Shown here piece after piece: positions 5,608-51,426 of a DNA stretch of 64,000 nt (the first letter of the stretch is position 1; each line of letters starts with the position of its first letter). The notes beneath the pieces were generated by a model. That model saw only the letters and a program-made list of their open reading frames with translations, was not told the DNA's origin and ran no database searches. The DNA is taken from contig REDM01000163.1 of assembly GCA_007693485.1 (NCBI GenBank), positions 3,036 through 67,035 on the forward strand, read 5' to 3'. The position numbers were made by a program, and so were the translations under genes. Origin of the DNA: Spirochaetaceae bacterium. Its GTDB lineage: Bacteria > Spirochaetota > Spirochaetia > DSM-27196 > PWMO01.

Positions 5608-6486
5608 ATGCAAACGGTCCGTCCCCGTGGTCTTTCTCCTGGCTGGTACCCCGCTACCAGAAGCGGCGTCCTGCGTCAGTGTCGGCGCTGGGAGGAGTCG
5701 GTACGCACATCACCCGATGGAAAAAATGGCGCGTCCGCCGGGTTGGCCGCCGCAGAAGCGGCCGCGATACATGGTGCGGTGGTCGTTCCCCACGCCGGCT
5801 GGTCGTACTCGGGAGAGCTTGCGTTTCTTGGTTTCACACAACTTGGTTCCACGGTCGATACGGTAGTGGTGATCGGGGGGCACCTGGGCCCCGATGCCCC
5901 GGTTCTCCTTGCTGCCGAAGATCACTTTGCTACCCCACTTGGACGGATCGCCGCGGATCAGGAACTCTCCGACTGGATTCGGGCGGCGCTGCCGACACAT
6001 GACGACACAGACCGCGAGAACTCGGTTGAGATCCACCTTCCCATCGTACGATACCTCTTTCCTGAGGCGAGACTGGTCTGGCTGCGCGCTCCGGCCGGTC
6101 CGGTTGCCGTAGATCTTGGCCGGCGGCTGGCGCAATGGCCGCGCTCTGAACGGATTGCGGTGGTTGGCTCGACCGATCTCACCCACTATGGACCGCGTTT
6201 TGGACTGACGCGGCCCGGTTCAACCGAAGCCGCCCACCGGTGGGTGCGCGAAGAAAACGATCGCGGGTTTATTGACCGATGCTGTGCCGGAGATGGGGCA
6301 GGCGCGATCGAGCACGCCCTGCGAAACCACTCCGCCTGTTCGCCCGGCGCGGCTGCCGCTGCGATGGAGTTTGCCCGTGTGCGGGGGGCTGACGGCGGTC
6401 ATCTGATGCGGTACGCCACCAGTTGCGACGTGGCACCGGACGAGCATCTGGTGGGCTACGCGACCATCACCTATCCGACGAGCTGA
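5608..6486 (+). CDS. Memo-family protein (AmmeMemoRadiSam system protein B)
   Basis: N-terminal PGWYPA (AGxFYP-like) motif, then GAVVVPHAGWSYSGELA and VVVIGGHL blocks typical of the MEMO1 family. Confidence 0.75.
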   Translation: MQTVRPRGLSPGWYPATRSGVLRQCRRWEESVRTSPDGKNGASAGLAAAEAAAIHGAVVVPHAGWSYSGELAFLGFTQLGSTVDTVVVIGGHLGPDAPVLLAAEDHFATPLGRIAADQELSDWIRAALPTHDDTDRENSVEIHLPIVRYLFPEARLVWLRAPAGPVAVDLGRRLAQWPRSERIAVVGSTDLTHYGPRFGLTRPGSTEAAHRWVREENDRGFIDRCCAGDGAGAIEHALRNHSACSPGAAAAAMEFARVRGADGGHLMRYATSCDVAPDEHLVGYATITYPTS

Positions 6487-8126
6487 CGGATCAACTGCAC
6501 CGCCTCGCGTCGCGCCTGCTCCAGCGGATGGGGAGGCGTGCTGCCATGGAGGTTGGCGTTGGGGTGTGAGCCGGTGGCGCCGCTTCGGTGGTAGTATGCG
6601 GCCAGTGGGAAGAGTGTTGTCCAGAGGTTTTGCTCCTCTGCGCTGAGCTCGGACAGAAACCGCCATACCGGTTCGGTTGGCGCCGCCATTGTCGACAACT
6701 GCCCCGCATACTCGAGAAGGATCGCGCGGGTGCGGGTGCATATCGTGGTCGACCCACGCGAACCGGGCGCCGACGGCTGCCCATCCGGGTGCCCCGCGTT
6801 GGCGGCCGTTGGGGCCGCATCGGACTCCAGTGCGATCGTGAGTTGCTTCCGGTACCGGTCAAGAACCGCGGTTGTGTATCTGCCCGGGGTCTGATTCTCG
6901 TCCCACCGCACGCCGGGACGGTCGAGCACAAACCGGTACAACCAGCTGTGTGCGGGCTTCAGCCGACAGCCGTGCTGCACCGCGTGTACGGGCAGATAAC
7001 AGCCGCGTGCGTAGGCGGCGGCGCGAGGATACCCAAAGTCCGCGCCGATCACCGAGACCTCGCGTGCACCCAATGCCCGTGCCAGTCGTACCGCCGTGTG
7101 AGTGACGCTGCCGTCTCCGGTTGGCAGGTGAGGAATGCCAACACCCCGGGAGCGCAGCAGGGCGATCAGAGGATGGTCTCCGGCGACCCAGTGCACCCCG
7201 GCAAAGCGTCGAGCGACCGCAGGGGCGACGCCAAGATCGGCGACCAGGGTGCCGAGCGAATCCGGGTCGCCCATCGCGTGCAGATACGAGATCTGCTGCG
7301 CATCAACCGCGACGGTCAACGTTGGACGGACTCCCGCGGCGCTCAGCGCCGAGAGCGACGAATCGGTTGCAACGATGGCTTCATGGGGTTCCCGGCGCAA
7401 CAGGCTCGGCAGACTGTCATCCAGAGACGGCCCCGCGGCGGTAACCACCGCTCGGCTCAGACGGGGAAGCGATGGAGCCGGGCGGCCCGCGTGAATCAGA
7501 TTGATCACCATATTTCGCATCCAGCGCCGTCCGAAGAGCTGCTGAACCGAAAAGTCCCCAACCGACGCGTCAACTGCGTCGCGAACGGCCTGCGCGGCGG
7601 CGGAAAATCGTTCGGGGTCTGCGTCGACACGGCCTCGCAGGGGTACAACGCGCAGGTCTCCGTGGACAATCGGTACGTACCGGTCGGCTACCGTGTGTGC
7701 CAGGGTGCGGGGTTCTTCGTCGACCACCAGATTGACGCGGGGATCGTCAAACAGTCCATTGTGCGGCAACTTCTCCAACAGGGCGCGCACCATCCCAAGG
7801 TCATAGTCCACCACCAGAACCATCGTTACCGCGTCGTGCTGCAACAGACGGGCGATCTGGTGCCCCAGCCCGAGCCCCATGCAGACGATGAACCCCCGCG
7901 GTTCGATCGCCGCCACCGTGCGCTCGGCTTCCCGCTGCGGGTCGATGCGGGAGTGAAGCAGTCGTGGTGGCATCACCCCGTCCGCGCTTGCAGCTTCGGC
8001 GGTGAGTACACCGGTGCGAGCCGGGAAGACGCTGATCTGCCGGGCGGGAGCAACCCGCCGCAGGCGGTCCGCGAGATCGGCGTCTCGCTGTTCGATCGCG
8101 CGAAGGTGGCGCTCTACGCCGCTCAC
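6471..8126 (-). CDS. Motility-accessory-factor-like glycosyltransferase (Maf / DUF115, MptE-like), paralogue B
   Basis: AVVTAAGPSLDDSL and IVATDSSLSALSAAGVRPTLTVAVD blocks are paralogous to the upstream gene. GTG at 8126 forms a GTGA overlap with the upstream stop, so I prefer it over the track start at 8192. Confidence 0.7.
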   Translation of the reverse strand: MSGVERHLRAIEQRDADLADRLRRVAPARQISVFPARTGVLTAEAASADGVMPPRLLHSRIDPQREAERTVAAIEPRGFIVCMGLGLGHQIARLLQHDAVTMVLVVDYDLGMVRALLEKLPHNGLFDDPRVNLVVDEEPRTLAHTVADRYVPIVHGDLRVVPLRGRVDADPERFSAAAQAVRDAVDASVGDFSVQQLFGRRWMRNMVINLIHAGRPAPSLPRLSRAVVTAAGPSLDDSLPSLLRREPHEAIVATDSSLSALSAAGVRPTLTVAVDAQQISYLHAMGDPDSLGTLVADLGVAPAVARRFAGVHWVAGDHPLIALLRSRGVGIPHLPTGDGSVTHTAVRLARALGAREVSVIGADFGYPRAAAYARGCYLPVHAVQHGCRLKPAHSWLYRFVLDRPGVRWDENQTPGRYTTAVLDRYRKQLTIALESDAAPTAANAGHPDGQPSAPGSRGSTTICTRTRAILLEYAGQLSTMAAPTEPVWRFLSELSAEEQNLWTTLFPLAAYYHRSGATGSHPNANLHGSTPPHPLEQARREAVQLIRQLVG

Positions 8127-9739
8127 GGATGCGCTCCGGGCATATTCGTCTGCCTCATCCGCCCGACGCAGTGCGCGATCGTGGCGCGGCACGCGTCTGC
8201 GAGCGCCTCTGCGCCTGCGGACTGCGGGTGCCGAAGCACCGTCAGGTAGTGGGCTGTTTCGATCGTTCGGGCGATATCACACGCAAGCGCCTCTTCGTCG
8301 GACCGCTCGCGCGGCGGGCGGCGCAGAGCCTTCGGCAGCAGGTCGAGCGCCTTCGTCCAGCGGTCAACCGCTGATTGAAGCGGGGCGGGAGTGCCCGGTT
8401 CAGTCAGTCGCAGTCCGTCCGTGCGGTCGACGCGTGGGGTGCGGTTTCCGTGGGGCAGAACTCCTTCGGGCATCCGCAGCGCTACCGGAGAGGGATGGAT
8501 ACGGATTGCGTCCGTCGGGGGAGCGGCTTCGGCAAACCACTGTGCGTAGACCCGCATCGAGCGGGATATGCGCGCCCGTCCGCCGATCACGCGTCCGGTC
8601 CTGGGGTTCGTTGGCGCGGGACCCGGAACCACTTCGCTGCCCACCACAGATCGGCGATAGAGGATGGTGTAAAGCGGATTGGTCCGCTTCGCGACTGGCC
8701 ACAGAATACGCTCAAAGCGGTGTCCGGGCGGGTGGGAGTGGAGGTCGGCGCTGCAGAGATCGAGCCCAACGAAGAAGACGGTACGCACTCCAACCGCGCC
8801 CGCCAGGTACCACGCGCTTCCGGCAACGGTTCCGTGCGGAGGCAGTGAGATGGAGGCCGTTCGAAGCGTCCCGATCAGGTCGCGTTCGAACCATGAGCCC
8901 TGGTTGAGAACGACGATGGGGTAGTCATCTTCGGGGCGGTCGAGGGCAGCTGCGAGGGGCGCCGCCACCGGAATGCCAAGCCCTCGAAGCGGTTTGAGGT
9001 GCTCGATCGCGTAGGCGCCGCCGTCGGTTGCGACTACCAGGTCGGGACGAATCCCCGCGTTCAGCAGGACCGAGACGGCCGACGGAAGAGCCCAGATCCG
9101 CGTGGTATCCGGCAGGGCCGCCAGATCGGAGAGTGAGAGCGAAAGTGAGGGGCCGGCAGCAGCAATGACGACCGAATCTGTCGAGAGGGGGTGATGAGCC
9201 GCCGGCTTGGGTTCGGCAGAGCTGCGGCTGCAGAGTGCGAGGGCGTTGCGCACCGAGTTTCGCAGCCATCGTCGACCGAAGAATCCTTCTGTTGCGAGGA
9301 CGGCAGTTCGCCGGTCAAGCATGGTTCGCAGGGCGGTGAGGCAGCGCTCGGCGACGTCGGGAAAGGCCCTCGCCGCCGGCTCCCACGCCAGGACCAGAAG
9401 CGTGCTGCTCTCCTCCTCGACAAGCGCGTGATCCAGAAAGTGCTCCAGTGAGCCGCTGCCGCTCCACATCGCGTCGGCATCTGCGACACGGTGGTCGAAC
9501 AGATCGCGGCTGTAGTTCAGCCAGACCAGCCGTACGGACGGGAAGCGCTTGCGGACCGCATCCACGAGGTACCCAAGGCCGTCACCGAGAATGACCGCCG
9601 CACGGTACGTGCAGTCGGTGGACGCTTCCCGTTCCACGAAACGGTGCGCCTCCATGCGGGGATCGTAACGAGAGTGAATCCAGCGGCCGTCGTGAGAAGC
9701 AGCGAGTTCGCCCGAGCGGGCGGGGGAGTACGCAATCAT
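8123..9739 (-). CDS. Motility-accessory-factor-like glycosyltransferase (Maf / DUF115, MptE-like), paralogue A
   Basis: VVIAAAGPSLSLSL, ALPSAVSVLLNAGIRPDLVVATDGG and FFVGLDLC blocks are typical of DUF115/Maf proteins. About 540 aa, similar to Campylobacter Maf proteins. Confidence 0.7.
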   Translation of the reverse strand: MIAYSPARSGELAASHDGRWIHSRYDPRMEAHRFVEREASTDCTYRAAVILGDGLGYLVDAVRKRFPSVRLVWLNYSRDLFDHRVADADAMWSGSGSLEHFLDHALVEEESSTLLVLAWEPAARAFPDVAERCLTALRTMLDRRTAVLATEGFFGRRWLRNSVRNALALCSRSSAEPKPAAHHPLSTDSVVIAAAGPSLSLSLSDLAALPDTTRIWALPSAVSVLLNAGIRPDLVVATDGGAYAIEHLKPLRGLGIPVAAPLAAALDRPEDDYPIVVLNQGSWFERDLIGTLRTASISLPPHGTVAGSAWYLAGAVGVRTVFFVGLDLCSADLHSHPPGHRFERILWPVAKRTNPLYTILYRRSVVGSEVVPGPAPTNPRTGRVIGGRARISRSMRVYAQWFAEAAPPTDAIRIHPSPVALRMPEGVLPHGNRTPRVDRTDGLRLTEPGTPAPLQSAVDRWTKALDLLPKALRRPPRERSDEEALACDIARTIETAHYLTVLRHPQSAGAEALADACRATIAHCVGRMRQTNMPGAHP

Positions 9740-9766: not shown

Positions 9767-10794
9767 TCACGCGACACCAAGGGCTTCCGTTACCGAGGGG
9801 CCGTCCGGGCGAATGCGCACAATCTGCGGGGCCAGATCGATGGTTGCATCCATCTCGCAGAAGAGCTGGCCGAGCCCGAGCCCGAGCTGATGAACGACCA
9901 GATCGGCGTGTGCGGTGGTATCGGAACTCAGTGACACCACGATCCGCCCATCGTCGAGCAGTCCTGCAACCGCCGTTTCCTCGAGCATCGAACCGATAAT
10001 CCGCAGTACGTCCTGGGATGCCCGATACCGGTCGGCACCAGGGTAGGCAGTGCAGATCGCATCCACCAGTCCGGAAACCGATACGGTTGCGCAGGTCACC
10101 GGCTGGTGGTTCGCGGTGCGTCGCTGGTCCTCGATATGCGACACGACTTCAGTGGTACCTGAGAGGACGTGGCGAAATCCCGCCCGCCGTCGTGCCTCCT
10201 GATTCCGTCCCAGCAGCGCCTCAGCGGGTTCTCTGATGGCGGAGACGATGAGTTTGATCGCAAGGCTCTCTACCGAGAGATAGGGACAATCCAGAACCAG
10301 AACTACGGCAGCGAGCTCGTCGTTTGCACAGAAGGCCACCACCGCGATTCGCCGAAGCATCGACCCCTCCCGGAAAGAGAAAAATGGTTTCCAAGCATCC
10401 AGCTCTTTCTGCTCGATAATCGCGATGGAGGATGAGTCGCAGTACCCGGATACCATGGAGACGGGAACACGCAGTCGGTGTTCCGAGGTGGAGTCGATGT
10501 CGCGCACAACCCACGGGGCGAGATGGGTTCCGTCGTAATCGGGCAGGAGGAGGGCGCCTTTTGCGATGTCGAGTTGCTCGGCGAGGAGGGCAAACAGCTG
10601 GCTGGGAGCCTCGATCCCACCTGGTATGGTTGAGAACCTGCGAAGCAGGTCCGCGACTGCGTGCTCGGGATCGAGGGTGTCGTGCGAATCGTCTACGAGC
10701 GGCGCGTCGCGCAGCAGCTCGTCAAGCGCTTTTTTTTTTCGGTACCTTCGGTGCGCGCGCGCATGGCGCGGCGCAGCAGCCCTTCGTGACTCAT
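9767..10794 (-). CDS. GAF-like / degenerate GGDEF-like protein whose N-terminal ~96 codons are only reachable by a -1 shift in an A10 run (recoded gene, phase-variable gene or frameshifted pseudogene)
   Basis: The track ORF starts at GTG 10507, but the same frame is open up to 10828 with coding-like GC3 and no start codon. ATG 10794 is in the +1-offset frame and meets the long frame at the A10 tract. The C-terminal part (AGLLDDGRIVVSLSSDTTAHADLVVHQL) resembles a GGDEF fold lacking the motif. Confidence 0.55.
10729..10740 (-). other. Homopolymer A10 (T10 on the plus strand) containing the heptamer A_AAA_AAG in X_XXY_YYZ phase; candidate -1 recoding or slippage site
   Basis: The minus strand reads GAA AAA AAA AAG in the ATG-10794 frame. 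The -1 frame continues GCG CTT GAC..., which is the long ORF. An SD-like GAAGG lies ~10 nt upstream and a hairpin-capable GC-rich segment begins 6 nt downstream. Confidence 0.5.
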
Positions 10795-10821
10795 CGGAAC
10801 CTGCCCTTGTGTCCGGCCCAA

Positions 10822-12666
10822 CTACGATTCAAGCCCAAGCTCCTCGAAGAGTCGCTTATACACGTCAAAGTGCTCGGAGCGGGCAAACTCTTCGATCTTT
10901 TCTTCCGGCAGTGATTCAAGCAGCTGGTCCATGTATTTCAGAACCGACCGTATCTCGTCGCGAAGGTCCGACGGAAGGCTTTCGGCCTCGCTCTCGGCCT
11001 CGCTCTGGGATTTCGATTCCCGGTCCTGGAACGACGGAGTCAACACCTCTTCGCCAAATGTGAACGCTTCGTCGCCCTGATCACTGTCGAGGTCGATTCC
11101 GAGATCGTCGTCATCATCCTCATCAAGCGAGAGCGCTTCTTCGACGTCTTCATCGTCTTCATCGCCGGTCAGCTCCAGCGCACCGATTTCCTCGTCGTCA
11201 TCGAGGTTGAGTATCAGCGTATCGTCTTCCGCCGATGTGTGGGTAGTCTCGTTGAGATCGAGGTCATTCTCCAGCGTATCCGTGGACGAAAACGCCTCGG
11301 TGGCGAAGGGGGACTCGAGCTCTTCGTCGCTGAGCTCTTCGATGCCGGCGAGCTCGGAGTCGATGTCCATGTCCGCGAGTTCCTGGACGGCCGCCTGCGA
11401 TCCGGAAAACGGTGACGTTGGTTCGTCCGACATGGTCTCTGCGTCATCGTCTTCGTCGAGCAGCAGATCGGTATCCAGATCGGTCTCGTCATCATCGCTG
11501 GAGTGGAGGGTGATTTCTTCGTCGTGATCTCCGGGGCTGAGAGTATCGTCGAGCATGCTGAGGCCGGAATCCAGATCGATCGAGTCGAGCTCGAGATCAT
11601 CGTCTTCGGAGTCCATTTCTTCCAGCACAATTTCATCAAGGGGCTGGTCGGCGAGCTCCGAGTCGTCGGAAGCAGCGACGTCCAGGCCGAGGTCGATGTC
11701 ATCGACTTCGCTGGGTTGCCCCAGTTCTTCGGTAAACTCGGCGGTGTTGAGGATGTTATCCAGCTCGTCGCCGGTAAGCGCGATGGTCTCGTCTTCGTCT
11801 TCTTCAAAGAACCCCGCGTCGATCTGAGGCTCTTCGACCGGGGGAGCGGTGGCGGTGGAAGGGGCGACCGCAGGTGATCCCCGTCGCAGCTCAGCAAGTT
11901 CCTGCTTCAGTGCCTGCAATTCGGTTTTTATCGAGGCGAGCTCGGTTTCAATACCGGCCAGTGCTTCGGGTTCGGGGAATTCGGTTGGGACTTCGGCGAG
12001 CATTTCGGCAGTTACCGCCTCCACGTCGTCAAAATCTTCGTCCACATCGAGCTCCGGAAGTTCTTCACCCAGGTCTTCGACGTCGAATGAGGATTCGGAA
12101 ATCTCGTCCATGGGGTCGTCGGCGGGGATCGTCTCGATATCGATATCGATGCCACCGTCGTCGCCAAGCGAGATATCGGCTTCGTCCGACACGCTCGCAG
12201 CCGGTTCGGTTTCGGCTGACTCGAGAGAATCGATGGTGAACTCGTCATCATCGAGATCGATCGAGAACTCTTCGTCATCACCCGACGACGCGGAGTCGGC
12301 GCCGAGTGCAGATGGCTCTTCGAGCTCGGATTCGATGTCGTCCAGCGAAAAGTCATCGATCGACAGCGTCTCGTCCAGATCCTCCCCGGTATCATCGAAG
12401 GAGAATGATTCGCCGGAAGCCTCCTGGTCCGACGCACGCTCGAGGGCCGACGCGCGTTCCAGATCGTCACTGTCCGTGAGTTCATCATCTTCTTCTTCCA
12501 GCGAGGCGAGCAGATCCTCCTCTTCCGTGGTGAGGCTGCGCTCGTCGTCGAACGATGATTCGTCTACATCATCGGCAACATCGGACAGAGCAAACATTTC
12601 TTCGGACTCGTCGGTGACGTCCTCCGGCCCGGCTTTAACCCATACTCCATACTGCTCGAGATCCAT
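10822..12666 (-). CDS. Hyper-acidic (Asp/Glu-rich) low-complexity protein with short conserved-looking N- and C-terminal modules; function unknown
   Basis: ATG 12666 is preceded by GGGGAG 7 nt upstream, so I prefer it over the track start at 12738. The N-terminus is MDLEQYGVWVKAGPEDV, the central ~500 aa are dominated by D/E/S/L, a short coiled coil reads ELASIKTELQALKQELAELRR, and the C-terminus is LRDEIRSVLKYMDQLLESLPEEKIEEFARSEHFDVYKRLFEELGLES. Confidence 0.7.
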   Translation of the reverse strand: MDLEQYGVWVKAGPEDVTDESEEMFALSDVADDVDESSFDDERSLTTEEEDLLASLEEEDDELTDSDDLERASALERASDQEASGESFSFDDTGEDLDETLSIDDFSLDDIESELEEPSALGADSASSGDDEEFSIDLDDDEFTIDSLESAETEPAASVSDEADISLGDDGGIDIDIETIPADDPMDEISESSFDVEDLGEELPELDVDEDFDDVEAVTAEMLAEVPTEFPEPEALAGIETELASIKTELQALKQELAELRRGSPAVAPSTATAPPVEEPQIDAGFFEEDEDETIALTGDELDNILNTAEFTEELGQPSEVDDIDLGLDVAASDDSELADQPLDEIVLEEMDSEDDDLELDSIDLDSGLSMLDDTLSPGDHDEEITLHSSDDDETDLDTDLLLDEDDDAETMSDEPTSPFSGSQAAVQELADMDIDSELAGIEELSDEELESPFATEAFSSTDTLENDLDLNETTHTSAEDDTLILNLDDDEEIGALELTGDEDDEDVEEALSLDEDDDDDLGIDLDSDQGDEAFTFGEEVLTPSFQDRESKSQSEAESEAESLPSDLRDEIRSVLKYMDQLLESLPEEKIEEFARSEHFDVYKRLFEELGLES

Positions 12667-12855
12667 ACTCACTCCCCGCTGCGCGTCTGATACTCTGGTT
12701 ATCGGCAGTGCCGGAGGTCGCTTTGACACGTTTCTCACTGTACTGCAACGCTTTTCGCGTTGTCAACAAGAGTATGAGCCTTCAGAGGGGGCGACGGTCG
12801 CCTGCGAGGGGGTATCAGCTAAAGCAACGACACGAATCGACCGTATTCTTGAAGT

Positions 12856-21100: not shown

Positions 21101-22444
21101 ATGCGCGCGGTAGACTTGATTGCCAAAAAACGAGACGGCGGCTCGCTGAACCAACGCGAAATCGCGTTTCTGGTTGACGGCTACGTCGCCGCAGAGATCC
21201 CTGAATATCAGATTTCGTCGTGGCTGATGGCGGTGTTTTTCCGCGGAATGAGCGGGGAGGAGACCGGGTTTCTCACCGACGCGATGATCCGATCGGGCAC
21301 CGTCTTTGATCTCAGTGGCGTTCCCGGCCCCTTTGTGGATAAACACTCTACCGGCGGGGTGGGAGACAAGGTGTCGCTCATCCTCGCGCCCATTGTCGCG
21401 GCGTGCGGAGTTCGCGTTCCGATGATGAGCGGTCGCGCCCTCGGGCATACCGGAGGCACGCTGGACAAGCTCGAGTCGATGCCAGGGTTCTCCACGGCGC
21501 TCTCGTCGGAGCAGTTTCGTGCGCTTCTGAATGACGTTGGGTTTGCGATGACCGGCCAGAGCAAAGACGTGGTGCCCGCCGACCGACTGCTCTACGCCCT
21601 GCGCGACGTCACCGCGACCGTCGAATCGGTGCCCCTGATCACCGCGAGTATCCTCTCCAAAAAATTTGCCGAGGGGGCCGACGCTCTGGTGTTTGACGTC
21701 AAGTGCGGCCCCGGCGCCTTCATGAAAACCGAGGCGGATACGCGGCGGCTCGCGGAGTCCCTGGTTAACACCGGAAGCGCCCTCGGTAAGAAGATCGTCG
21801 CCGTACTGACCCGCATGGAAGAGCCCCTGGGCCACATGGTCGGGAACTTTCTGGAAGTCGAAGAATCAATCGCCTGTCTGCACGGATCCATCGGGGGGCG
21901 GTCCCTGTCTCCTGATCCGCGGTCGGCCGATCTCATGGAAGTGACGCGGCGGCTCTCGGCGTGGATGCTGGTCCTCGGTGGCGTTGCGGCCACGGTAGAC
22001 GAAGCGACCGCGCGCGTGGATGGCGTCCTCGAGGATGGCAGCGCGTGGGCGCGCTTTGTGCGCAACGTCGAGGGACAGGGCAGTTCGATGGAAGAGGTTG
22101 AGAAACGCTACGGAACGTGGCGGGCGCCCATCTGCGAAAGGGTGCCCGTGCCGCGCGCCGGAGTCATTCACGCGATCGACGCGTTTGCCGTTGGCATGGC
22201 GGGGGTCTACCTTGGGGTGGGGCGCAACACCGCCGCCGATCCGGTGCACCCCGACGTGGGGATAGAGTTCCACCGCAAGCGCGGCGATGTGGTATCAGCC
22301 GATGAGGCTCTCTGCACGATCTATGGCCATACCGCCGAAGCCGTTGCCTCCGCTCGCGAGCAGATCACCGGCGCGTGCGAGATTGCCGATACTCCGTGGA
22401 AGCCGCATCCGATTGTTTTCGACGAGATATCAAACCTGGAATGA
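21101..22444 (+). CDS. pdp: Pyrimidine-nucleoside (thymidine) phosphorylase
   Basis: MRAVDLIAKKRDG..L...EI.FLV.GY, DKHSTGGVGDK and SGRALGHTGGTLDKLES are canonical family motifs. Confidence 0.9.
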   Translation: MRAVDLIAKKRDGGSLNQREIAFLVDGYVAAEIPEYQISSWLMAVFFRGMSGEETGFLTDAMIRSGTVFDLSGVPGPFVDKHSTGGVGDKVSLILAPIVAACGVRVPMMSGRALGHTGGTLDKLESMPGFSTALSSEQFRALLNDVGFAMTGQSKDVVPADRLLYALRDVTATVESVPLITASILSKKFAEGADALVFDVKCGPGAFMKTEADTRRLAESLVNTGSALGKKIVAVLTRMEEPLGHMVGNFLEVEESIACLHGSIGGRSLSPDPRSADLMEVTRRLSAWMLVLGGVAATVDEATARVDGVLEDGSAWARFVRNVEGQGSSMEEVEKRYGTWRAPICERVPVPRAGVIHAIDAFAVGMAGVYLGVGRNTAADPVHPDVGIEFHRKRGDVVSADEALCTIYGHTAEAVASAREQITGACEIADTPWKPHPIVFDEISNLE

Positions 22445-24564
22445 AGTGGAATAAACCCTCAGTAGATTCACAGCTGGTACGCGAACTCGCTCAGTTGCAT
22501 CGGATTGACCTCCTCAGCGCCGCGGTGATGGTCCGTCGTGGCGTCAGTTCTCCACCGGAAGCGCTCTTCTTCCTGGAAGATGACCCGCAGTACCTGCACA
22601 GCCCCTTCCTCTTCGAGGAGATGGAAGACGCGGTTGATCGCATTCTTGCCGCGCGAAGCGAGGGCGAGAAGGTGCTGGTCTTTGGAGATCGGGACGCCGA
22701 CGGCATCACCAGCATCACCATCCTTGTGCAGACCCTGCGCGAACTGGGAATCGACGCGCAGTGGTCGCTCCCCATGGGCGATGAGCCATACGGGCTCACC
22801 ATCGAGACCGTTGAGCGCTTTGCCTCCGAAGATGGGACGCTCATTGTGGCGGTTGACTGCGGCATCACCAACGTTGCCGAGATCGCCCGAGCCGGGGAGC
22901 TGGGCGTTGACGTGATTGTGCTCGATCACCACAACCCGCCCGAGACGCTGCCCGATGCGATTGCCGTGGTCAACCCGAAGATGCCTGACACCGGCTATCC
23001 GTTTGCGGGCCTCTGTGGGTGCGCACTCGCGGCCAAGTTGCGCTGGGCTCTGCAGGTCGCAGGTACCGAGCTCTACAAGCAGACGGTCTGCCTGCTCAAC
23101 GTTCGACCGGGTAACGACTCCCTCATTATCGAGGCGGTGAAACTGGAAAATCTGATGGAGGTTGACCGCATCAGCGAGACGGTGGTTCCGGGGTTGGTGG
23201 GGATTGAGGATACACGGATCCCCGCCTTTCTGCACGGTCACGAAGTGATTGCCTACGACGCGCCGTCGCAGGAGCGCATGATCCGCCGCGCCTTTGGGAA
23301 TCGGGTTGATGTTGCGCTGATCGATGCTGCCCCGGAGATCGGGAAGACCTTCCCGGTCGTGGAGGGAAAAAGTCTGCTCAAGATGCTCGACGGCTCACGG
23401 CTTGCACGCTACCGCACGCGGCGCCCCGAAGAAATCGACGTCTTCGTGACCCTTTTCGCCCTTTACATGCAGAAGCGGCAGCCGAGCCTTCAGACCGCGT
23501 ATCAGGACGTAGCCGATCTGGTGGCGCTGGGAACCCTCGCCGACATGATGCCGCTTCAAAACGAAAACCGCATCCTCGTGAAGATGGGGCTCGCCAAAAT
23601 GACGGCCAATCCCCGGCCGGGTCTTCGTGCCCTGCTCGATCGGCAGAATCTCCTTGGGAAGTCGATCACCGCCCAGGACGTGGGGTTCCAGATCGCGCCG
23701 GTGGTAAACGCGTCGGGGCGAATGGGCGAGCCTGACAAGGCGGTACGCCTTTTTCTCTCGGAGAATCAGGCCGAGATTGCAACGCTCGCCGGAGAAGTGA
23801 TTGCGCTGAACGAGCGACGAAAGGAAATCGGGGAGCTCGCCTGGGCGCGGGTCATGCAGCCGGCCCGGTTGAGCGCCGAGCAGCACGACGGCAAACTCAT
23901 CGTGGTACAAGATGATGAGATTCACCGCGGCATTACGGGCATTCTTGCCGGACGGCTCTGTCGCCACTTTCGGGCTCCCGCCCTGGTTATGACTGCAGCA
24001 AACGGCAAGACCGTCGGGTCGGTGCGCAGTGCGCGCGGTTTTCTTGCGACCGAGTTTCTGAAGCAGTTTGAAGACATTCTGCACGAGTGGGGGGGGCACG
24101 ACCCCGCAGCCGGCTTTGCCCTGTCGTCCGAGCAGGTGCCCGACTTCCTGCGCCGCATCACCGCCTCCGTTCCCGCGATCCGTCTGGGCGACGAAGAAGA
24201 GAGCGCAACCGTTGACGCGGAAATTCCCCACTCGTTCATGACTCCCGAGCTCTTTCGTGTGGTAGACGTCTTTGCCCCCTACGGGCAGGAGCACCCGCCG
24301 CTGGTATTCATGGTTCGAAACGCCCGCATCGAGCGCATCGATTTCATGGGCAAGCAGGAGCAGCACGTGCGGCTTACCGTGGCCACCGGCGCCCACCGCT
24401 GGCCTGCGGTGTACTGGAACGCAGGCGAGCGAGTGAACGTGGATTTCAAGCTTTCCGATCTGGTTGATCTTCTGTTCCGTTTGGAGAAGAACTACTACCA
24501 GGGCCGGGAAACGCCGCAGCTCAATGTGATCGATCTTCGCCGAAACGGGGAGGGTGCGGAGTGA
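22441..24564 (+). CDS. recJ: Single-stranded-DNA-specific exonuclease RecJ
   Basis: DHH motifs (VFGDRDADGITS, DCG, VLDHH) and the DHHA1 GGH region. ATG 22441 overlaps the pdp stop (ATGA). Confidence 0.9.
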   Translation: MKWNKPSVDSQLVRELAQLHRIDLLSAAVMVRRGVSSPPEALFFLEDDPQYLHSPFLFEEMEDAVDRILAARSEGEKVLVFGDRDADGITSITILVQTLRELGIDAQWSLPMGDEPYGLTIETVERFASEDGTLIVAVDCGITNVAEIARAGELGVDVIVLDHHNPPETLPDAIAVVNPKMPDTGYPFAGLCGCALAAKLRWALQVAGTELYKQTVCLLNVRPGNDSLIIEAVKLENLMEVDRISETVVPGLVGIEDTRIPAFLHGHEVIAYDAPSQERMIRRAFGNRVDVALIDAAPEIGKTFPVVEGKSLLKMLDGSRLARYRTRRPEEIDVFVTLFALYMQKRQPSLQTAYQDVADLVALGTLADMMPLQNENRILVKMGLAKMTANPRPGLRALLDRQNLLGKSITAQDVGFQIAPVVNASGRMGEPDKAVRLFLSENQAEIATLAGEVIALNERRKEIGELAWARVMQPARLSAEQHDGKLIVVQDDEIHRGITGILAGRLCRHFRAPALVMTAANGKTVGSVRSARGFLATEFLKQFEDILHEWGGHDPAAGFALSSEQVPDFLRRITASVPAIRLGDEEESATVDAEIPHSFMTPELFRVVDVFAPYGQEHPPLVFMVRNARIERIDFMGKQEQHVRLTVATGAHRWPAVYWNAGERVNVDFKLSDLVDLLFRLEKNYYQGRETPQLNVIDLRRNGEGAE

Positions 24565-51340: not shown

Positions 51341-51413
51341 GGTGGCGTAGCTCAGTCGGTAGAGCAAGCGGCTCATATCCGCTCGGTCAGGGGTTCAAGT
51401 CCCTTCGCCACTA
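51341..51413 (+). tRNA. tRNA with anticodon CAT (elongator Met or lysidine-modified Ile2; not initiator-like), CCA not encoded
   Basis: Manual cloverleaf: acceptor GGTGGCG/CGCCACT (G1-U72 wobble), D arm GCTC-AGTCGGTA-GAGC, anticodon arm AGCGG-CTCATAT-CCGCT, variable loop CGGTC, T arm AGGGG-TTCAAGT-CCCTT, discriminator A. The anticodon stem lacks the three G-C pairs of initiator tRNA. Confidence 0.85.
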
Positions 51414-51426
51414 CTTCGGTTTCTGG

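Follow-up and report, generated by a model that had tools for sequence, protein, structure and literature searches.

The stretch of DNA analysed here (hereafter the window) comprises 64,000 nucleotides from Spirochaetaceae bacterium, on contig REDM01000163.1 of assembly GCA_007693485.1 (positions 3,036 to 67,035, 62% G+C), and contains a gene whose coding sequence is laid out in two reading frames that meet at a run of ten adenines (A10). All coordinates at this locus refer to the minus strand of the window unless marked otherwise. The gene begins 27 nucleotides after the stop codon (TAG, 10824-10822) of a gene for a very acidic protein, at ATG 10794, which is preceded at a distance of 9 nucleotides by a Shine-Dalgarno-like AAGGG (10804..10808) that has an equivalent in the close relatives L001 and L004. 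From this ATG, frame 0 encodes the 33-codon open reading frame (ORF) MSHEGLLRRAMRARTEGTEKKKRLTSCCATRRS*, which ends at TAG 10695-10693. Codons 19-22 are GAA AAA AAA AAG and hold the A10 run (10730..10739), the recoding site proposed here, within which two in-phase heptamers, A_AAA_AAA and A_AAA_AAG (10735-10729), overlap. The N-terminal coding segment, from the ATG through the AAG codon (MSHEGLLRRAMRARTEGTEKKK, 10729..10794), aligns with relatives in which the whole protein is encoded in a single frame. The frame-0 stop lies 1 to 28 codons past the AAG, varying by clade, and judging from this comparison the frame-0 tail beyond the run is not conserved coding sequence.

The remainder of the protein is encoded in the -1 frame, which is open from 10828 down to its stop at 9769-9767 and has its earliest ATG, GTG or TTG at GTG 10507, leaving 74 conserved codons after the run before any start codon. 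A -1 shift brings in GCG CTT GAC as the following codons, and the body then runs from GCG 10729 (ALDELLRD...) to TGA 9769-9767 (9767..10729), giving a fused protein of 342 amino acids. The third frame is closed by TGA at 10722..10724 (...KKKSA*), where the products of A9 or A12 mRNAs would end; by comparison, a run of eleven adenines (A11) would give a single 342-amino-acid ORF that aligns end to end with the in-frame family members. A preliminary description, made from the window alone, had proposed programmed -1 frameshifting of the dnaX type at this site, and its account of the reading frames was borne out: the position and end of the frame-0 ORF, codons 19-22 with A_AAA_AAG in the X_XXY_YYZ phase, and the open but start-less -1 frame that continues with GCG CTT GAC can all be read directly from the sequence.

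A first protein search with the fused protein returned three relatives, all called as truncated proteins, and the contigs of all three carried the A10 run and the two-frame layout. Further loci were obtained from a genome scan, a profile search of 1.84 billion representatives and contig look-ups, with source assemblies produced by MEGAHIT, SPAdes, JGI and Logan together with NCBI metagenome-assembled genomes, from soda-lake and other spirochaetes and from independent projects. The two-frame layout of the window is kept in 14 distinct sequences that fall into 8 clades: clade A (window/L003, L001 and L004; 91-100% identity to the window protein), clade B (L002 and L005; 46-48%), clade B' (L007 and L008/L009; 44%), clade C (L011 and L012; 47%), clade D (L014; 30%), clade E (L015/L016; 28%), clade F (L019-L021; 28%) and clade G (L022, sister of the in-frame protein P0075).

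Both halves of the gene are conserved across these clades. The frame-0 N-terminus reads xxxGLLRRA in clades A-C and, in clades D-G, MGLLxRA or MGLYNxx; in-frame family members carry the same N-terminus on a single polypeptide chain with the GAF body. In most clades KKKAL(D/A)ELL... is what the -1 frame encodes after the run. Between the window and L001, a 92% relative, the 74 start-less codons differ at 33 sites, 31 of them third positions; in the -1 frame 30 of these differences are synonymous and 3 non-synonymous, whereas the same differences read in frame 0 give 1 synonymous and 31 non-synonymous. The substitution pattern turns to favour frame 0 before the run, at the few sites available there. 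Together, these comparisons strongly support the view that the two frames are one gene, and that a frame change at the A run is needed to make its protein. We also considered, and rejected, initiation at a non-canonical codon of the long frame ahead of the run, because this part of the -1 frame is unconserved and contains a stop codon in L005.

One objection is that no recoding takes place, the layout being a sequencing or assembly error, a decaying pseudogene, or a gene whose body is translated on its own, with initiation inside it, for instance at GTG 10507; homopolymers are indeed error-prone, and gene finders do call the body from internal starts (197-286 amino acids). However, the identical A10 layout recurs in independent assemblies and clades and A11 was assembled correctly in L010 and L013, which for practical purposes excludes an artefact. 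The start-less stretch of 74 codons is under strong purifying selection and the frame-0 N-terminus is conserved, so with selection acting on both halves the gene is not a pseudogene, and internal initiation cannot account for the conserved stretch, the first internal start moreover differing in position between clades. We therefore consider these explanations, even taken together, very improbable, and the sequencing or assembly indel and the decaying pseudogene, which the preliminary description had listed as alternatives, are set aside.

The run itself is conspicuous in this G+C-rich DNA, as had been pointed out: it is the sole homopolymer of at least 9 nucleotides in the 64 kb, the next longest A/T run being 7, and the expected number of A/T runs of at least 10 in the window is 0.007 if bases are independent and identically distributed. 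Next in length among the homopolymers of the window is a G8 (24089-24096, plus strand) inside a long ORF (22375-24564, plus strand). In all 14 distinct sequences from the 8 clades the run is exactly A10, in the same phase (xAA AAA AAA AAN) and preceded by G or C, and a comparison of the 8 clades shows that the conserved features at the site are the run and the Ala-Leu codons that follow it. This constancy stands against the codon usage of the genomes concerned. In the window, AAA accounts for 33% and AAG for 67% of Lys codons, GAA for 34% of Glu and CAA for 13% of Gln, and across the G+C-rich clades the corresponding ranges are 25-50% (AAA), 20-49% (GAA) and 9-27% (CAA), giving a chance of about 0.003-0.04 per lineage for xAA AAA AAA AAA; it nevertheless recurs in every clade, despite saturated synonymous sites. 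The third base of the Glu/Gln codon is A in 8/8 clades, though it lies outside A_AAA_AAG, and clade B uses CAA there despite a strong preference for CAG. By this test, the length of the run is conserved beyond what the protein and codon usage would need. The A_AAA_AAG phase is kept in 7/8 clades, the exception being L022 of clade G, in which a T follows the run (A_AAA_AAT); this low-G+C relative also has a second A run (A8, GAA AAA AAA GTA, 2326-2333) near the start of its frame-0 ORF.

The preliminary description had further identified two flanking elements with the geometry of the stimulators of E. coli dnaX, and both are present in the window: an SD-like (Shine-Dalgarno-like) GAAGG at 10745..10749, 9 nucleotides before the heptamer, and a hairpin stem, ACGAGC...GCTCGT, at 10695..10722, 6 nucleotides after it, which forms in the predicted minimum-energy fold. 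Neither is conserved. Conservation of the SD-like motif stops at clade A, no such motif was found in clades B, C, D and E, and motifs from the validated list (GAGG, GGAG, AGGA, GGNGG and AGGKG, those proven to stimulate -1 frameshifting; PMC4066793) occur only in L019 and L022; GAAGG itself is absent from that list (PMC4066793). The folding energy of the window hairpin is no better than that of shuffled sequences (z = -0.29 and z = -0.17 in two runs), and folding of the flanks on either side at 11 loci gave values within the range of shuffles throughout (|z| < 2) and no conserved structure. A G->A change in L004, a 93% relative, breaks the window hairpin, in clade B another hairpin directly abuts the run, and in L015 the downstream fold amounts to -0.5 kcal/mol, that is, no structure. 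A cmscan search of 10400-11000 (E <= 10) gave no match to the Rfam DnaX frameshift element, with one unrelated chance match. Of the features that make up the E. coli dnaX signal, the heptamer is found here, whereas a conserved SD 6-17 nucleotides upstream, a conserved stable stem-loop 4-10 nucleotides downstream and an RNA-family match are not. The specific dnaX-type reading with its stimulators, as first proposed, is therefore not upheld across the clades: the heptamer stood in 7 of the 8, the hairpin did not.

These observations bear directly on the possibility that the frame is restored purely by the ribosome, through programmed -1 frameshifting of the dnaX type on a faithful A10 mRNA, aided by the SD and the hairpin. 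A heptamer in the correct X_XXY_YYZ phase, of a motif that ranks among the best bacterial -1 motifs (PMC4066793), is what such a mechanism needs, and a run longer than 7 could be accounted for by two tandem in-phase heptamers. Yet heptamers that lack stimulators shift only 2-10 times above a 0.055% background in E. coli, well below 1% (PMC4066793), and here the stimulators are unconserved and one clade has A_AAA_AAT in place of A_AAA_AAG. In addition, a signal of the dnaX type goes with a sole, shift-prone tRNA-Lys(UUU) for AAG, whereas the preference of this G+C-rich genome for AAG (67%) suggests that a tRNA-Lys(CUU) exists in it; a separate AAG-reading tRNA-Lys is expected to make an organism a poor shifter on AAG, and in such a case Thermus uses polymerase slippage (PMC5009743). 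We regard a purely ribosomal mechanism as unlikely, although it is a contender to be taken seriously.

Transcriptional slippage, which the preliminary description had mentioned only as an alternative, fits better, the A10 run being the only conserved nucleotide feature at the site. Bacterial RNA polymerase slips efficiently on A/T runs of at least 9, for example on the A9 of Thermus dnaX (PMC1088944; PMC5009743), and transcriptional realignment is the reported explanation for two-ORF dnaX genes that carry A10 (PMC3711429). All testable features of a transcriptional realignment site are found here: a run of at least 9, the joining of two ORFs across it, and a conserved length. We favour polymerase slippage because the run has the size of the 9-10-base-pair RNA-DNA hybrid and is conserved as a run, while its flanks are free to vary. 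On balance, we judge it probable, with moderate rather than high confidence, that recoding at the A10 run is conserved and obligatory and that the polymerase slips there, with or without a contribution from the ribosome.

In such a scheme, translation would start at ATG 10794 and produce the normal N-terminus of the family (xGLLRRA...EKKK), and the remainder, a GAF and a GGDEF-like domain, would be read one base back, for a total of 342 amino acids. RNA polymerase would slip on the T10 template and add one A, and the resulting A11 mRNA would read GAA AAA AAA AAA GCG in the normal manner. Unedited A10 mRNA would yield a 33-amino-acid peptide ending at the frame-0 stop (TAG, 10693..10695), and A9 and A12 mRNAs would stop at 10722, so full-length protein would come only from the fraction of expression events that restore the frame at the run. 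A -1 ribosomal slip on A_AAA_AAA or A_AAA_AAG would give the identical protein (...TEKKKALDE...) and may add to the yield. The scale of such restoration elsewhere is illustrated by tssM1 of Citrobacter rodentium, where an A11 run gives mRNAs with 10-15 A and about 20% restoration (PMC4256274). What the comparisons show is the two-frame layout, its deep conservation, selection on both halves and the lack of conserved dnaX-type stimulators; the slipping machine, the frequency of slipping and the purpose of the site are deductions.

We next consider the wider family, in which a profile search found 243 matches at E <= 0.001. About 150 representatives comprised 80 that are full-length and in frame without a KKK motif, 15 that are full-length with KKK in the N-terminal linker, and 37 with a short N-terminus; every short-N representative whose DNA was inspected proved to be an A10 frameshift gene (7/7), and the verified frameshift members grouped together in neighbour-joining order. 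Three in-frame members with KKK were inspected, and all have an A run encoding it at the position of the A10 site: L013 and L010 have A11 (GAA GAA AAA AAA AAA) and L017 has an in-frame A10 (GAT AAA AAA AAA AGT). The genomes of these members prefer AAA (64-85%) and GAA (56-76%), so their runs may be just a KKK motif written in favoured codons, and we dropped them as evidence of selection on the run itself. In P0090, another member, the N-terminal linker contains KKK twice, and Lys-rich, A-rich linkers seem to recur in the family.

Two sister members differ in state: L013 has A11, is in frame and has a G after the run, whereas L022 has A10, is frameshifted and has a T after it, from which it follows that the frame state has changed more than once in evolution. 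A plausible history would be that an A11-encoded EKKK motif lost one A, that the lineage survived because the tract slips, and that A10 was then held while the genomes turned G+C-rich.

The same pair of sisters is what a switch at the DNA level would also predict, with slipped-strand mutation toggling the gene between A10 (off) and A11 or A8 (on) in mixed populations of which assemblies show the off state. The position of the homopolymer, early in a coding region and beside Maf-type flagellin-modification genes, fits such phase variation, and Campylobacter maf and flagellin-glycan genes are reported to be phase-variable by way of homopolymeric tracts (PMC3068675, PMC13130089). Against it, the tract is exactly A10 in 14/14 distinct sequences of the frameshift clades, with no A9, A11 or A12, and A10 is constant within the same or near-identical populations (L007-L009, L011/L012, L015/L016, L019-L021 and window/L001/L004). 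Searches of 5.8 billion clustered proteins and of 1.84 billion representatives gave no in-frame full-length allele of clades A-C, and a merely mutable tract would drift in length between clades at 28% identity. We consider phase variation decidedly unlikely.

Several points also weigh against slippage by the polymerase at a conserved site, the explanation that we favour. Slippage itself is deduced rather than directly observed in these uncultured spirochaetes. Since A10 contains two overlapping -1 heptamers, conservation of the extra adenines is compatible with a purely ribosomal mechanism, and the window contains a single tRNA gene, for tRNA-Met (CAT; 51341-51414, plus strand), with no tRNA-Lys there. 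The G after the run is set by the conserved Ala codon and is uninformative either way; the in-frame A10/A11 relatives, being explained by KKK in AAA-rich usage, are not independent evidence; and tract length does toggle in evolution, between L013 and L022, which a switch in the DNA would likewise predict.

Other searches added little. A protein search with a 41-sequence alignment gave only 6 matches, within the word-index limit of the search, and a search with the N-terminal junction region of the 8 clades gave none at E <= 0.001 and is uninformative on in-frame alleles. A metagenome protein-pattern scan gave chance matches among the matches listed, a metagenome search with the DNA pattern A8+GCNCT...GANCTNCTNCGNGA, which fits clades A-C only, found none, and a cluster look-up of ten relatives returned only "hypothetical protein" names. 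Gene finders split the gene into an upstream ORF of 59-68 amino acids and a body of 197-286 amino acids called from assorted internal ATG, GTG and TTG codons. Small upstream ORFs of this kind lie at 2717-2911 in L008, 2238-2444 in L015, 2220-2399 in L019 and 2295-2474 in L022, and the split also shows in the protein calls P0001-P0007, P0080 and P0153. A sizeable part of the family (37 of about 150 with a short N-terminus) may be mis-annotated through this split.

The fused window protein has no Pfam or NCBIfam family match. The AlphaFold model of its body (pLDDT, the predicted local distance difference test, of 91) is confident and contains a predicted GAF domain at model residues ~44-185 (10184..10609), for which Foldseek matches the GAF domains of Lcd1 (TMt 0.54) and PtsP (TMt 0.66); Pfam GAF_2 and GAF match 2/41 family members, with a best E of 3.9e-5 for GAF_2. 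The GAF-like assignment of the body made in the preliminary description is thereby borne out. The C-terminal alpha/beta domain (9770..10156) is tentatively a degenerate GGDEF-like domain, based on Foldseek and sub-threshold profile matches: over both domains Foldseek matches PelD, Dcsbis and DosP, at low TM-scores (0.27-0.39), and GGDEF chains are matched at E = 0.078 (3icl) and E = 0.36 (4rnf). Neither the window protein nor the family members had a Pfam GGDEF match, and no recognisable GGDEF motif was found, so from the models we would tentatively call the second domain GGDEF-like at the fold level only.

The gene lies in a conserved setting. The upstream gene for the very acidic protein occupies 10822..12738, and its orthologues carry PF27359 (TP_0179 family) in precomputed annotation; a Pfam scan of the window acidic protein itself gave no match. 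This protein is of low complexity, and only its C-terminal tail, LPEEKIEEFARSEHFDVYKRLFEELGLES, looks conserved. A promoter-like site precedes the acidic gene (12766-12737) and no terminator-like site lies between the genes; since the listed start, GTG 12738, overlaps the promoter-like site, the true start is probably downstream, at MDLEQYGVW. Downstream lie two tandem MptE-like/Maf-type paralogues, at 8123-9739 and 6471-8192 (Pfam PF01973, E = 4e-16 and 1e-21), whose ORFs overlap by 70 nucleotides, the real start of the second probably lying further in. In related loci whose contigs reach far enough, the acidic TP_0179-family gene, the A10 gene and the two MptE-like/Maf-type genes are found together, with DivIC and DUF1015 upstream and Memo downstream. 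A role in the control of flagellin glycosylation would be a guess from this context.

If the A10 gene is expressed as we propose, the site would likely serve to hold a regulator-type protein at a set fraction of its operon partners, the acidic TP_0179-like protein and the two homologues of Maf-type flagellin glycosyltransferases. A bolder version, which we offer as speculation and to which, with its four parts taken jointly, we attach little confidence, is that the run is a tuned rheostat ancestral to a branch of a spirochaete-specific GAF/GGDEF-like family. The frequency of slippage, maybe sensitive to ATP and other nucleoside triphosphate pools, growth rate or lysyl-tRNA supply, would set the ratio of the regulator to the flagellin-glycosylation enzymes; the short peptide from the N-terminus (MGLLxRA...KKK) would have a function of its own, as a second product; A10 (mostly off) as opposed to A11 (mostly on) would be an evolutionary setting; and about a quarter of the family clusters (37 short-N of about 150) would be recoded genes truncated by annotation.

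Among ordinary chromosomal genes of bacteria, conserved recoding is a rarity: prfB, dnaX and a few others are the familiar cases. The A10 gene would add a deeply conserved example, with at least 8 clades and orthologues down to 28% identity, in a phylum for which we found no precedent, our literature searches having turned up neither this family nor a case of recoding in any spirochaete; the depth and strictness of its conservation set it apart. The family also offers a natural series for distinguishing slippage by the polymerase from slippage by the ribosome, comprising the G+C-rich holders of A10, the A_AAA_AAT variant and the in-frame A10/A11 relatives. In the frameshift lineages, finally, family models and the annotation of this Maf-linked GAF-type protein are systematically wrong.

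Compared with known systems, the site shares with the A9 of Thermus thermophilus dnaX, and with the A10 of two-ORF dnaX genes in Chlorobi and others, a sense-strand run of 9-10 A in a chromosomal, non-mobile gene that is conserved among orthologues. In those genes mixed mRNA yields products in different frames (PMC5009743, PMC3711429), which is proven there and deduced here, and in the two-ORF dnaX genes, as at the A10 site, the long product needs the shift (PMC3711429). They encode a clamp-loader subunit, however, in place of the GAF and GGDEF-like protein found here, and the A10 site lies near the 5' end (codons 19-22), so that its unshifted product is a short peptide and not a functional truncated subunit. 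The E. coli dnaX signal has A_AAA_AAG in the same X_XXY_YYZ phase, with Lys-Lys decoding, but its internal SD and stem-loop have no conserved counterpart in the spirochaetes, and its shift makes a shorter product whereas the shift here makes a longer one.

Among GAF-GGDEF and PelD-type signalling proteins, the likeness lies in the domain order, a predicted GAF domain and then an alpha/beta domain, with PelD, Dcsbis and DosP as the best structural matches, and the difference in the missing Pfam GGDEF match and motif and the TM-scores of 0.27-0.39. The Campylobacter jejuni maf and flagellin-glycan genes likewise have a coding-region homopolymer in a Maf-type glycosylation locus, but their tracts are poly-G/C and vary in length within and between strains, whereas the tract described here is a constant poly-A in a GAF-type gene and not in maf. 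Closer in mechanism are tssM1 of C. rodentium and tssM of Yersinia pseudotuberculosis (A11) and mxiE of Shigella (T9), in which an interrupted frame is restored by a non-templated A with no SD or hairpin, the absence of stimulators having been used as an argument for tssM1 also (PMC4256274). These cases are confined to a few related enterobacteria, in contrast to at least 8 clades down to 28% identity here, and both length variants of tssM1 are functional. The closest cases are the two-ORF A10 dnaX genes and tssM1, and the spirochaete A10 gene belongs to a class of mechanism that is already known.

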